Below are positions 3,860 to 64,000 of a stretch of DNA of 64,000 nucleotides, in pieces; positions within the stretch are counted from its first letter, which is position 1, and each line of letters opens with the position of its first letter. A model generated the notes under the pieces. That model searched no databases. It had not been told where the DNA came from and worked only from the letters and a program-made list of their open reading frames with translations. A program made the position numbers and the translations under genes. Origin of the DNA: Candidatus Babeliales bacterium. Its GTDB lineage: Bacteria > Babelota > Babeliae > Babelales > JANWKD01. Location of the stretch: NCBI GenBank assembly GCA_963722255.1, contig CAVRJO010000001.1:832001-896000 (forward strand), written 5' to 3'.

Positions 3860-4213
3860 TTAGTCTTTCTTTTCCTTAGCCTTCTTGTTCGCTTGGTACA
3901 GCTGCACAGTTATAGCTGCAACCCCAGCGCAGAAAGCGGCACCGACAGGAGCGACTAGAGTCCCAACAACGAACATATCCGGTCTTTCTAAAGGAAATTG
4001 ATTAAATAGTATGCAACAAGAACCTAAGCAAACAGCACCTGATATAGCAGCTTCGCAACAACTATGTTCATCATACTCTATTTGATTAGAGGGCATTTTT
4101 TTATGTTCTTTGCACATCTCTTTCTTTTCGCAACGTTCCATTGATGATATTTCAAAACTGGTGCACAACAAAATAGGCAAAAACAACAGACTTAAAAATC
4201 TTCTTTTTTTCAT
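3860..4213 (-). CDS. Secreted/membrane hypothetical protein (Cys-rich, two hydrophobic segments)
   Basis: Signal peptide then MER; AAGGAG RBS; C-terminal hydrophobic hairpin. Confidence 0.7.
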   Translation of the reverse strand: MKKRRFLSLLFLPILLCTSFEISSMERCEKKEMCKEHKKMPSNQIEYDEHSCCEAAISGAVCLGSCCILFNQFPLERPDMFVVGTLVAPVGAAFCAGVAAITVQLYQANKKAKEKKD

Positions 4214-4350
4214 ACAAGCTCCTTAAAAAATGGCGTAGAATAAAGAAATTAATATTTTTTCAATTGTATATTAAACTAACAACAAGCAGTTTATTCTAAC
4301 TTTTGCAACAACAAAATACAATCAAAAAATCTCTATTTGGAAAGGCACAT

Positions 4351-4929
4351 ATGACTCATAAAACAAACTCCGATCTACTTCATGAACTGTACAGCAAATT
4401 CCCAAACTGCCAGTCAATACCAATCGATACCCAGGGGGCCACGAGAGTTGTCTATGGCCAAGGAAATCCTAATGCGGAACTTATGATCATCGGTGAAGCA
4501 CCAGGTCAAAAAGAAGATGAGCTTGGCAAACCTTTTGTAGGAAGATCAGGAGAACTGCTTACTAATACCTTGCAAGCACTTGGCATAAAAAGAGAGGATA
4601 TTTTTATAACAAATGTTGTTAAGTGCCGTCCCCCTAATAATAGAACCCCAACACAAGAAGAGGTTGATCTTTATAAAAAATATTTTTTAATACCTGAAAT
4701 TAAAATAATCAGGCCAAAAATAATTATAACCGTAGGAAACATAGCATTCAAAGCGATTCTTTCTGATACTGGATTAACAATTTCAAAAGCCCGTGGTCAA
4801 TTGTTCCAACGCGGCAATTTTCTCATTATACCCACCTTCCATCCTGCGTATATATTAAGAAACCCTTATGAATTAAACAATTTTAAGGCTGATCTCGCTT
4901 TGGGCGCCTCATTTTTAAAAAAGGAATAA
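4351..4929 (+). CDS. udg: Uracil-DNA glycosylase family 4
   Basis: IGEAPG, PFVGRSG, TNVVKCRPPNNR, PTFHPAY motifs. ATG at 4351 has a GAAAGG RBS (ORF track starts at 4303). Confidence 0.92.
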   Translation: MTHKTNSDLLHELYSKFPNCQSIPIDTQGATRVVYGQGNPNAELMIIGEAPGQKEDELGKPFVGRSGELLTNTLQALGIKREDIFITNVVKCRPPNNRTPTQEEVDLYKKYFLIPEIKIIRPKIIITVGNIAFKAILSDTGLTISKARGQLFQRGNFLIIPTFHPAYILRNPYELNNFKADLALGASFLKKE

Positions 4930-4957
4930 TAAAAAAAATTAAAAGTGCACATAGAAA

Positions 4958-5238
4958 TTGTGGATAACTATGTGGATAACTATGTGGATAACCTGTGGAT
5001 AACTTTGGACATATCTGTCATTGTTTGCTGCAGAAGGCGACTTCAAAGCCCATGCTATTTAAATTACCACATAGAAGATGATATTGAACCATATGGGGCA
5101 AGTTATCCACAAGTTATCCACATAGTTATCCACAAAAAAAATTGGCAAATAATGCTGTATTCTAAAGGCTTTTTGCAAAAGTTATCCACAAAAATGCGTT
5201 TGCCTATTATTATTAATAATATATATATATATAAATAA
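4958..5238. promoter_or_regulatory. oriC: Chromosomal replication origin (oriC)
   Basis: TGTGGATAA at 4959, 4971, 4983, 4994; TTATCCACA at 5103, 5114, 5126, 5182; NTA repeats at 5204-5221; AT-only tract to about 5238. Confidence 0.9.
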
Positions 5239-62412: not shown

Positions 62413-62505
62413 CGCTTTATTGGCTATGCAAGTGATTTGTTTTTCTGTACACTCACCTGTGTTAATACTAATTTTCTTATTTGCATAAACAGAAGGATTT
62501 ATACT

Positions 62506-63063
62506 ATGCAAAAAATTTCTGCGTACAGTTTAGCGTTATCAGTATGTCTCGCTTTTTCAGCTTCACTCTATAGTTCAACGGTTTGGAAATATGATTACAC
62601 AACCATTGCAGGTCATATTGAAGATGAAATTGATAAACGATTTCAACCAGGCATACAGTCTGAAGCTATGAAAGTTGAGCTTGCTGCATTCAAGCGAGAT
62701 AAAAAAACAGCTCTAGCGAGAGCCGTTGAAAAAGAGCATTATCAAAAGCCTTTTAGAACACAGCAAGAAGCAAAGGCATACGCAACGGAATTAGCTAAAG
62801 CTGCATCTAATGAATTTTTTGATAAAATTCTAGAACATAGGATTGCTATGAAAATGGCAAATTTGCCATCCAGAGCTGGAGTATTTAAAGATCAATTTAT
62901 TGTGGTTGCAAGAACCTATGTACAAAATAAAGCTTTTCAAGAAGCAACTCAAACTGGTCGCTTAACACACACATTAAAAAATGTTGAATACTTAATAACA
63001 GAAGCATTAAAAGCGAATTTCGAATGGACATGCGAAGTTTGCACTTGGTTGCGTAACCAATAA
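62506..63063 (+). CDS. Secreted helical hypothetical protein (paralog of 59265..59825)
   Basis: GAAGGA RBS; signal peptide; YDY..I...IE.E.D..FQP shared with 59265..59825. Confidence 0.7.
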   Translation: MQKISAYSLALSVCLAFSASLYSSTVWKYDYTTIAGHIEDEIDKRFQPGIQSEAMKVELAAFKRDKKTALARAVEKEHYQKPFRTQQEAKAYATELAKAASNEFFDKILEHRIAMKMANLPSRAGVFKDQFIVVARTYVQNKAFQEATQTGRLTHTLKNVEYLITEALKANFEWTCEVCTWLRNQ

Positions 63064-63133
63064 GATATAAAAAATATGGTAGTAGTTTTAACGAAGCTGC
63101 TACCTTACTAAATTTTTTCAAGAAACGAATTAT

Positions 63134-64000
63134 ATGAATTTCAAGTTATTCTTGTCCATCTCTTTATTCTATTCTGTTGCAATGTGTGCTATGGAGCAAA
63201 AAGCAAAACCTGAAATTGAGCCAACATCTCCACGTTTATGGGTCAATTCACTGAAAGATTTTAAAATTAATAATGCAGAAGATAAATATTCTAAGTTTTT
63301 GGATGAAGTAATAAAAGTTATTAGTAAACAATTGCCACGTTCTCAATTGGAGCTTTATTCAACAATGATTGAAGCTGCAGTTGAAATAGAAGATGTTGAG
63401 TTAACAGATTCATTATGTGGCCATTTTAGTTCAGTTTATAGTGAGTATTTTCATGGTACTATTCATGAAGCTGAAACCTTCAGCACCGTTGTTAAACTAA
63501 GAAAAATAGTTGAGTTAAAAAAAACACGACATGGCGTTTTAAAATTATTGCATTTCAGTAGCACAGGAGCATTACCGCCTTTGCAAGAAGATGTATCTAA
63601 TCAGGTTTTGAAAACGGCAATTCCTCATAAGAATGATATTCATACATTAGAAAGCTATGAAGAGGTATGCCAAGAAAAAAATTTTGAAGAGATCTGGTGC
63701 GGGGATTGTAACGTATTTGGAACAATTTTTCCATCATTAGCAGTTAATTTTTTTGAAAGTAAAATTATAACGGCAACTTCTGATGGTTCTATTTTTGTTT
63801 ATGATTGTAAAGGCAGGTTACTATCAGAAAGCAAAAAACGGGTTAAAAATAAAAAACCGGTTCTTTTATTAGAAGGTGAATTTACATCACATACTGCTAT
63901 GTTGAAAGTAAAGCATTTGCGTTCAGGTCATTCTGTACTATATGCACCGAAAGATAAGCATATACACTGTTGTATGCTTGGTAAGAATGTGCTTATAGCT
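63134..64000 (+). CDS. Secreted hypothetical protein, runs off window; WD40-like segment
   Basis: MNFKLFLSISLFYSVAMCA then MEQ; EPTSPR; IITATSDGSIFVYD. Absent from the ORF track because there is no stop inside the window. Confidence 0.65.
   Translation, partial: MNFKLFLSISLFYSVAMCAMEQKAKPEIEPTSPRLWVNSLKDFKINNAEDKYSKFLDEVIKVISKQLPRSQLELYSTMIEAAVEIEDVELTDSLCGHFSSVYSEYFHGTIHEAETFSTVVKLRKIVELKKTRHGVLKLLHFSSTGALPPLQEDVSNQVLKTAIPHKNDIHTLESYEEVCQEKNFEEIWCGDCNVFGTIFPSLAVNFFESKIITATSDGSIFVYDCKGRLLSESKKRVKNKKPVLLLEGEFTSHTAMLKVKHLRSGHSVLYAPKDKHIHCCMLGKNVLIA

Follow-up and report, generated by a model that had tools for sequence, protein, structure and literature searches.

A Methionine-First Pattern behind Predicted Signal Peptides of a Candidatus Babeliales Bacterium as a Candidate Tag of Host-Directed Exported Proteins

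A stretch of 64,000 nucleotides (positions 832,001 to 896,000 of contig CAVRJO010000001.1, GenBank assembly GCA_963722255.1), here called the window, was analysed within the 1.62-Mb genome (G000; two contigs, 34% G+C) of a Candidatus Babeliales bacterium. Many predicted signal peptides of this genome are followed directly by methionine (Met), which in turn is mostly followed by Glu, Asp, Asn or Gln. Met is the commonest residue at +1, the first position of the predicted mature protein, in genomes with this motif (24-31% of sites). We lean towards a Met-first rule that is specific to the lineage and covers part of its Sec secretome, most likely as an N-terminal tag of mature exported proteins destined for the host. 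Such a tag seems not to have been described before: no published +1 Met or cleavage-site rule for this phylum was found in the main-text excerpts of the literature, including PMC6561590, PMC4378268 and PMC4776705.

Genomes and Prediction Rules

Open reading frames (ORFs) of at least 50 amino acids (aa) were called in the source genome, giving 1855. Signal peptides and cut sites were called by home-made rules that were checked against internal and cross-genome controls. Two loose rules found leader-like N-termini in 728 and 858 of the 1855 ORFs (about 39-46%). This share approximates the 44% of proteins behind signal peptides given for one phylum member in the available part of an account of published Dependentiae genomes (PMC6561590). 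The strict pattern consisted of a hydrophobic core, A/S/G/C/T at -1, a permitted residue at -3, and then Met. The +1-blind rule was a fixed -3/-1 cut-site rule ignoring residue +1, and it predicted 463 signal peptides in the source genome. Both this rule and the loose rule behind the 728 leaders demanded a positively charged n-region and, near the N-terminus, a hydrophobic core of about 8-15 residues. An expectation-maximisation motif search for the cut site settled on the hydrophobic core instead, and the fixed -3/-1 rule was used in its place.

The relatives in the genome collection belong to one order and have small genomes (0.8-1.8 Mb); the phylum-wide sample fell in the same order. The distribution of the motif is based on 16 genomes, 8 of them sampled for 100 kb each. 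Pfam was run on ORFs from C1:1-400000 of the source genome plus the window: 79 with the motif, and 92 of the 105 leader ORFs without it (the 13 shortest were omitted).

Met Is Enriched at the Predicted Cleavage Sites

Under the final pattern, 279 of the 1855 ORFs combined a leader, a canonical -3/-1 signal peptidase I (SPase I) site and Met, and 182 of these read Met-[EDNQ], here called the core motif. At the sites placed by the +1-blind rule, Met occupied +1 in 113/463 (24%) against a Met background of 1.7%, which bears out the observation of a first-pass annotation that Met follows the signal. The +2 residues after these blind-placed Met were E (58), Q (16), N (13) and D (6). The same rule gave Met at +1 in 36/123, 15/56, 18/59, 9/50 and 10/65 sites of relatives, and in 0/58 sites of the negative control G016, where the identical pipeline returned Ala as the top +1 residue. 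The first Met lay 1-8 residues past the hydrophobic core in 292/728 leaders, and about 94 were expected from the Met frequency. When the c-region was searched for [ASGCT]-X-[EDNQ] in the source genome, X was Met in 182 cases, followed by Leu as the runner-up (39), His (12), Cys (8) and Trp (2).

The leaders were aligned on Met with -1 and -3 unconstrained (n = 307). The leading residues were A (76), S (61), G (46), T (28) and C (21) at -1, and L (74), S (49), I (42), T (25), V (24) and A (23) at -3. L/I/F/V prevailed at -12 to -7, -2 was often F or Y, and Glu came next after Met in 100/307. A lipobox with Cys at +1 was not found; in these aligned sites, where +1 is Met by construction, positions -3 to -1 form none. 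Motif leaders average 23 residues, and Lys is residue 2 in 37% of the motif precursors, giving a positively charged n-region. An extension of the motif to -2 was rejected: aromatics make up 32% there versus 20% at non-Met sites, but they also reach 23% in motif-free genomes and are not distinctive.

A strict set of 215 ORFs fell into 171 BLAST families, of which 130 were singletons. Because the families are so many and mostly singletons, paralogy does not explain the pattern, and the carriers are mostly unrelated, as had been proposed. With one member per family (n = 171), +2 was E in 72, N in 22, Q in 15 and D in 6.

An unusual peptidase specificity had also been suggested, but the sites do not support it. 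Residue usage at -1 (A 52%, G 22%, S 21%) and -3 (L/I/V/S/A) is canonical and does not change at non-Met sites or in genomes that lack the motif. The SPase I gene is present (PF10502, two matches above the cut-off in the source genome). A second LepB paralogue was considered as a dedicated peptidase and rejected. There are two copies in G000, G001, G003, G020 and G022, one in the motif-positive G014, and at least two in the motif-free G005, G007 and G024, which is no clean correlation. The presence of secretins or of a type II secretion system (T2SS) did not discriminate either: each of the five genomes searched has two secretins, namely G000, G014 and G022 with the motif and G057 and G016 with a weak motif or none. 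The T2SS sorting code suggested in the first-pass annotation is neither favoured nor disfavoured by this result. Two secretins have been published for the phylum (PMC4776705). In the accessible part of the Dependentiae genome literature (PMC6561590), no mention of a type III, IV or VI system was found.

Residue +2 and Conservation of the Met

In six genomes pooled, D/E/N/Q followed Met in 163/201 sites (81%), small residues in 6% and bulky hydrophobic residues in 5%. After other +1 residues, the corresponding shares were 26%, 35% and 28%. In the comparison with residue 2 of the genome's own proteins, Glu made up 51% of the +2 spectrum after Met, and S, A and T were almost missing. Residue 2 of the non-exported proteins is D/E/N/Q in 24%; in the source genome it is K in 16%, N in 12% and E in 5.9%. 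The +2 class thus matches the NatB-type Met-Glu/Asp/Gln/Asn ends named in the first-pass annotation. The ratio of E to D at +2 was 86:13 in G000, G001, G003 and G014, and 1:8 in G020 and G022 (p = 4.6e-6). Lineages switch between E and D yet stay in D/E/N/Q, which fits selection for a residue class and not for a single residue. The +2 Glu codons were GAA:GAG = 87:25, compared with 88.7:23.3 expected; since this choice follows genome usage, the constraint acts on the protein. A nucleotide-level signal was rejected, as synonymous codons at +2 and -1 are near genome usage.

The conservation of the Met was measured in 68 directed homologue pairs whose query had Met-[EDNQ], G057 excluded. Identity at the Met was 0.67, 0.73 and 1.00 in the <35%, 35-50% and 50-70% identity bins, respectively, and flanking positions ranged from about 0.2 to 0.8. 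Of 41 unordered pairs, 28 had Met opposite Met; on visual inspection, about 9 of the other 13 are misalignments with Met-[EDNQ] a few residues off.

Proteins Carrying the Motif

Among the 79 motif ORFs, Pfam recognised ankyrin (8), WD40 (3) and DnaJ (2) proteins, together with Sel1/TPR, GNAT, papain-like DUF1796 and beta-helix proteins; 47/79 had no Pfam match. The non-motif leader set held TolB-like, Amidase_3, Rotamase_2, SBP_bac_3, Peptidase_M15 and PEBP proteins, S9 peptidases and many membrane proteins. The motif was absent from the inspected Pfam-annotated housekeeping envelope proteins (TolB-like, Amidase_3, M15, PEBP, SBP_bac_3 and the envelope protein at 11116). The first-pass annotation had called for a comparison of eukaryote-like with housekeeping proteins; here, ankyrin, WD40, J-domain and GNAT proteins are among the carriers, and TolB-like, amidase, M15, PEBP and SBP proteins are not. 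FtsH, MreC, LspA, a permease, a substrate-binding protein and an S49 peptidase stood in a first loose list and fell out under the final pattern. Ankyrin proteins made up 8/79 motif ORFs versus 0/92 non-motif leader ORFs (Fisher p = 0.0017). Of the 35 members of the ankyrin BLAST family, 29 have a leader; 21 of those 29 have the motif, and two more lie just under the thresholds.

The carriers are poorly shared with relatives. Reciprocal best hits in a 400-kb congeneric sample were obtained for 5% of motif proteins versus 17% of other classes, with mean identities of 36% and 53-65%, respectively. The product of 33819-34610 had no relative beyond itself among 5.8 billion proteins. Motif genes are clustered on the chromosome, with 69 adjacent pairs versus 41.7 +/- 5.4 in shuffles. 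C-terminal membrane anchors were rejected as a shared trait, showing no enrichment (14/168 vs 45/402 and 70/742).

J-domain, GNAT, ankyrin and WD40 families work in the cytosol with Hsp70, acetyl-CoA and eukaryotic partners. As these families are among the carriers, we infer that the mature motif proteins act in the host, and more precisely in its cytosol.

Spread among Relatives

Of the 16 genomes sampled from the order, 7 had a clear core motif, and 7 that are just as AT-rich had none or almost none of it. Per leader-like ORF, the clear group gave 182/858 (G000), 48/237 (G001), 23/104 (G003), 20/112 (G014), 17/106 (G022), 8/54 (G028) and 15/106 (G020). G018 (4/42) and G057 (10/123) were intermediate. 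The near-zero group gave 2/43 (G005), 2/99 (G016), 1/53 (G009), 0/55 (G006), 0/30 (G007), 0/46 (G024) and 0/41 (G027). ORF calling and pattern were identical throughout, and the near-zero counts in equally AT-rich relatives indicate that the longest-ORF rule in AT-rich DNA is not the cause of the signal. G057 has a large exported paralogue family (L081-L090, G057:C1:1-200000) with junctions such as ISMYA/AQE, in which Met is more likely at -3. As its Met counts come mostly from this one family, G057 was treated as weak or negative.

In a quick NusA+InfB tree, G000, G001, G003, G014 and G020 form a clade (SH-like approximate likelihood-ratio support 96), and G022 and G028 stand outside. The motif label needs three changes on this tree, and 13/500 shuffles were equally good. 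A single origin of the motif, with losses in the 0.8-Mb genomes, remains conceivable.

Junctions and Neighbouring Genes in the Window

The first-pass annotation had listed about 15 junctions of signal and Met in the window (Table 1). All 15 are present in the sequence, far beyond chance, and belong to a genome-wide pattern; the placement of several is weak or ambiguous. Ten of the 15 pass the strict pattern: those at 3860, 13544, 14536, 33819, 34614, 37169, 38870, 56006 and 63134 at the Met named earlier, and that at 58524 at VFT/MFA. The +1-blind rule picks a cut further upstream in the ORFs at 14503, 16809, 38870 and 58524, so the Met placements there are ambiguous. The pattern had been described as lacking in envelope proteins and in the secreted family at 19-20 kb. 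This description is right for the barrel protein at 11116, for one secretin (22049-24445) and for the 19-20 kb family; the other secretin (26649-29474) fits the pattern (LPT/MNN).

Table 1. Predicted leader junctions in the window. A slash marks the predicted cut; coordinates are those of the window.
Position	Strand	Product	Junction	Remark
3860-4213	-	117-aa ORF	EISS/MERCEK	core motif; C-terminal hydrophobic segment
13544-13759	+	71-aa ORF	SALES/MQQDK	core motif; blind rule picks same site
14503-14895	+	ORF, likely start near 14536	SLSKC/MENEF	blind rule favours SLS/KCM
16809-17303	-	164-aa ORF	CNNFG/MYKKI	weak: Asn at -3, Tyr at +2
33819-34610	-	263-aa orphan	NFCYS/MEQQES	C-terminal hydrophobic segment
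34614-35351	-	245-aa ORF	ITIKG/MDDFRK	
37169-37978	-	269-aa ORF	HVTKT/MNKKSK	paralogue-like to 38063-38794
38063-38794	-	243-aa ORF	PMLSMT/MEIEV or MLS/MTME	pattern picks Met two residues upstream, so SMT/MEI has Met at -2
38870-39247	-	125-aa ORF	SQIFC/MQKPIF	blind rule favours IFA/SCT
43289-43660	+	ORF, likely start 43325	IKLLP/MESKV	Pro at -1, atypical for SPase I
45033-46439	-	468-aa ORF	NSTILP/MKQTG	Pro at -1, atypical for SPase I
56006-57541	+	511-aa ankyrin-repeat protein	VCSSFA/MEEEKS	Ank_2 E = 5.6e-13
57678-57773	+	31-aa ORF	LSSYC/MNDDKK	probably truncated gene remnant
58524-58871	+	115-aa ORF	VFTMFA/MNVEED	N-terminal piece of apparently split ankyrin gene; next piece 58907-59152
63134-64000	+	ORF open at window end, 490 aa in genome	VAMCA/MEQKAK	junction read by eye
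20324-20725	+	133-aa ORF	WHTGS/MLAKG	absent from earlier list; Met, but +2 not D/E/N/Q
59250-59825	+	191-aa ORF	VTGS/MHARTW	absent from earlier list
26649-29474	-	GspD-like secretin	FLCLPT/MNNTM	Secretin E = 3.1e-33; fits pattern
11116-13335	+	large envelope protein	VGIYA/YEDEK	contrast: no Met
19072-20293	+	three small secreted paralogue-like ORFs	NFA/QEN, IEA/QVK, VDA/GTI	contrast: no Met
22049-24445	-	second secretin	KVDA/QPEES	contrast: no Met

The gene content, with two secretins, a T2SS-like operon and proteins of the ankyrin, WD40 and UCH types, fits the accessible portions of published Dependentiae/TM6 accounts (PMC4378268, PMC4776705). The T2SS-like block spans 22049-30598 (minus strand) and comprises both secretins, a GspC-like gene (29474-30598, PF11356) and two more large ORFs. 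The UCH protein (31852-33705, minus strand, E = 3.3e-31) has a leader without a junction Met and a C-terminal tail of about 200 residues that is very rich in Glu, Lys and Arg. A clostripain-family protease (2371-3795, plus strand; Peptidase_C11, E = 6.1e-33) has a hydrophobic N-terminus followed by IPHL/MMNN and fails the -1 rule. The paralogue-like ORFs 37169-37978 and 38063-38794 have the same architecture, in which the leader is followed by a charged, coiled-coil-like central part and a hydrophobic C-terminal segment that ends in SYLL.KA, and they may be tail-anchored.

On the plus strand, 57678-59152 holds the 31-aa leader-only ORF, two small hydrophobic ORFs and the two pieces of the ankyrin-like gene; this string looks like decaying copies of exported accessory genes. 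From reading of the translations, a ClpB-type chaperone (59845-62412, plus strand) extends over four overlapping frames (59845-60744, 60674-61447, 61502-61951 and 61873-62412). It appears to be a pseudogene or to contain indel errors of the assembly. A small nucleotidyltransferase (17460-18154, minus strand; Polbeta/MNT type, PF18765, E = 6.5e-16) overlaps a 137-aa ORF downstream, and the two are probably an MNT-HEPN toxin-antitoxin pair. A pair of this type is mentioned for a cultured phylum member in the available text of PMC4378268.

Proposed Function and Alternatives

In the model that we favour, translation would begin at the upstream start led by a Shine-Dalgarno-like motif and yield an ordinary signal peptide with n-, h- and c-regions of about 23 residues. 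SPase I would most likely cut after the small -1 residue, leaving mature proteins that begin with Met-Glu, Met-Asp, Met-Asn or Met-Gln. This dipeptide would be kept by selection on the protein and not on the DNA, mainly on fast-evolving accessory proteins with domains of the host-cytosol type (ankyrin, WD40, J-domain, GNAT). Because the carriers have such domains, the dipeptide is most likely a tag of host-directed exported proteins; these would arrive in the host, and the tag, once read, would affect stability, onward sorting or post-export handling. Ala, Ser, Gly, Thr and Val at +1 are also stabilising, so stability alone does not call for Met.

Several results weigh against the tag. The motif is not exclusive, as a secretin carries it, and several host-type leader proteins go without it, for example UCH. 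When conservation was scored as any hit in another family, motif proteins showed no significant depletion (15/72 vs 114/391, p = 0.16); 11 of these 15 are ankyrin proteins matching through their repeats. The cut sites are predicted by home-made rules; for a minority of leaders, the blind rule places the cut elsewhere than at the Met, and Met falls at +3 of the blind-rule site in 28/463. The homologue pairs are non-independent, and BLOSUM-guided alignment favours Met-Met columns. In a first ortholog set (reciprocal best hits, G001 sample), Met was kept in 3/9 pairs, which were judged too few to use. The first-pass annotation had proposed the junction Met as an effector signature. The link with eukaryote-like and orphan proteins and the conservation of the Met speak for this by association, and the secretin and UCH stand as exceptions.

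A more specific form of the tag is doubtful in our view, namely that the host side reads M-[E/D/N/Q] as a code, or that this dipeptide is a recognition element for a step across the outer or vacuole membrane, as a bacterial counterpart of the processed PEXEL end. If the host reads the code, effectors would begin in the way that newly synthesised cytosolic proteins of eukaryotes do. Their Met would stay because residue 2 blocks methionine aminopeptidase, no Met-hydrophobic degron would be formed, and the end would be of the NatB substrate type. Host N-terminal quality control would then spare these proteins, or they would become acetylated. The D/E/N/Q class and the avoidance of small residues may reflect selection for a retained eukaryote-like N-terminal Met.

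We regard it as unlikely that the Met is merely the relic of an ancestral start codon, left as a functionless fossil when genes of cytosolic type, or acquired ones, were extended at the 5' end by a signal peptide. The carriers are young genes that evolve fast, and many have cytosolic-type domains. Two further observations favour a relic. A J-domain paralogue reads SP/MEYKEDYYALL beside the cytosolic DnaJ MKQDYYEILG, as if a leader had been joined precisely to a DnaJ-type N-terminus. In addition, +1 Leu followed by E/D/N/Q uses TTG, a possible former start, in 4/6 cases versus a 16.5% TTG background, which is a weak hint. However, the Met in homologue pairs is better conserved than the residues around it, which is not expected of a neutral fossil. 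The +2 spectrum, dominated by Glu and nearly free of S, A and T, is unlike residue 2 of the genome's proteins, and the preference for E or D varies by lineage. GTG-coded +1 Val with E/D/N/Q was found in 0/7 cases. Leaderless homologues do not begin preferentially at the Met (offsets scattered from -10 to +26, n = 19), and the lone pair at offset 0 looks like a spurious ORF. An origin as a relic and later maintenance by selection are mutually compatible.

A general property of the signal peptidase or envelope of the lineage, in which the N-terminal residue protects or modifies extracytoplasmic proteins and is not specific to effectors, seems improbable. It has a precedent for a lineage-specific rule at the residue after the cut in the Bacteroidetes Q-rule (PMC5837995, PMC10653852), the motif is clade-limited, and a secretin is among the carriers. 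Against this, Met occupies only 15-31% of the predicted sites rather than most of them, and the inspected annotated housekeeping periplasmic and outer-membrane proteins are without it. The -3/-1 residues do not differ between Met and non-Met sites, and the LepB copy number is out of step with the motif.

Least of all do we believe that translation can also begin at the internal ATG and give a cytosolic isoform, or that this ATG is the true start and the leader a longest-ORF artefact. This objection had been raised with the first-pass annotation. A start codon would be conserved too, and many genes of this genome have no recognisable Shine-Dalgarno motif (one precedes 28% of the long non-exported ORFs), so its absence alone is no proof. 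Even so, such a motif precedes 44% of the upstream starts of the motif genes but 2% of their internal ATGs and 6% of random internal ATGs. The upstream part shows the full n-h-c anatomy with a canonical -3/-1 site, and Glu follows the +1 Met in 33-51% of cases although it is rare after genuine starts (5.9%). The same ORF-calling pipeline gave 0-2% in equally AT-rich relatives, and the long form of 33819-34610 is present in a public protein collection. The internal ATG is thus not a regular start.

If the tag parts about 180-280 accessory exported proteins from the housekeeping envelope proteins, it would yield a genome-wide list of effector candidates and offer a mutable handle on sorting or stability. 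In this parasite of protists and some of its relatives, hundreds of exported proteins have the Met-first junction, and the tag may mark those directed to the host. The pattern is also a warning for annotation, since these genes do not start at the ATG that lies in frame about 23 codons downstream of their first codon. It would be a second case, after the Q-rule, in which a lineage has changed the residue that follows the signal-peptidase cut.

Comparison with Known Systems

The leaders resemble classical Sec/SPase I signal peptides in their n-h-c regions, the small -1 residue, L/I/V/S/A at -3 and the presence of S26 peptidase genes. They differ in having Met as the top +1 residue and in its coupling with E/D/N/Q at +2; the usual +1 residue of other bacteria is Ala, and Met seldom occurs there.

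Under the Bacteroidetes Q-rule, Gln follows most SPase I cuts and is cyclised to pyroglutamate by glutaminyl cyclase; according to the available parts of the sources, it is not a generic sorting signal (PMC5837995, PMC10653852). Both cases show a lineage-specific preference, at the level of a phylum, for one residue right after the SPase I cut. Here, however, the residue is Met, it marks only a subset skewed to accessory and eukaryote-like proteins, and it occurs within a sub-clade of the order. We know of no partner enzyme for a Met-first rule. The Bacteroidetes lipoprotein export signal also places sorting information in the first mature residues. The present sites have no +1 Cys and no lipobox and are SPase I-like.

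Processing of the Plasmodium PEXEL motif RxLxE/Q/D leaves the mature end xE/Q/D, which resembles M-E/D/N/Q. The oomycete RxLR-EER (PMC11754927) and powdery-mildew Y/F/WxC (PMC2886064) motifs also lie near the signal peptides of eukaryotic parasites, as described in the accessible text. As in these systems, a short motif stands just behind the signal peptide of unrelated, fast-evolving and probably host-directed proteins. Those are eukaryotic pathways with dedicated proteases, whereas here the motif abuts an SPase I site in a bacterium, and the analogy is functional only.

NatB substrates begin with Met followed by Asp, Glu, Asn or Gln, and NatB acts on nascent chains at the ribosome. The predicted mature ends agree with the NatB class and with N-degron rules, as 81% fall into Met-D/E/N/Q and 6% have a small residue that allows Met removal. 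They differ in belonging to predicted exported bacterial proteins and not to nascent chains.

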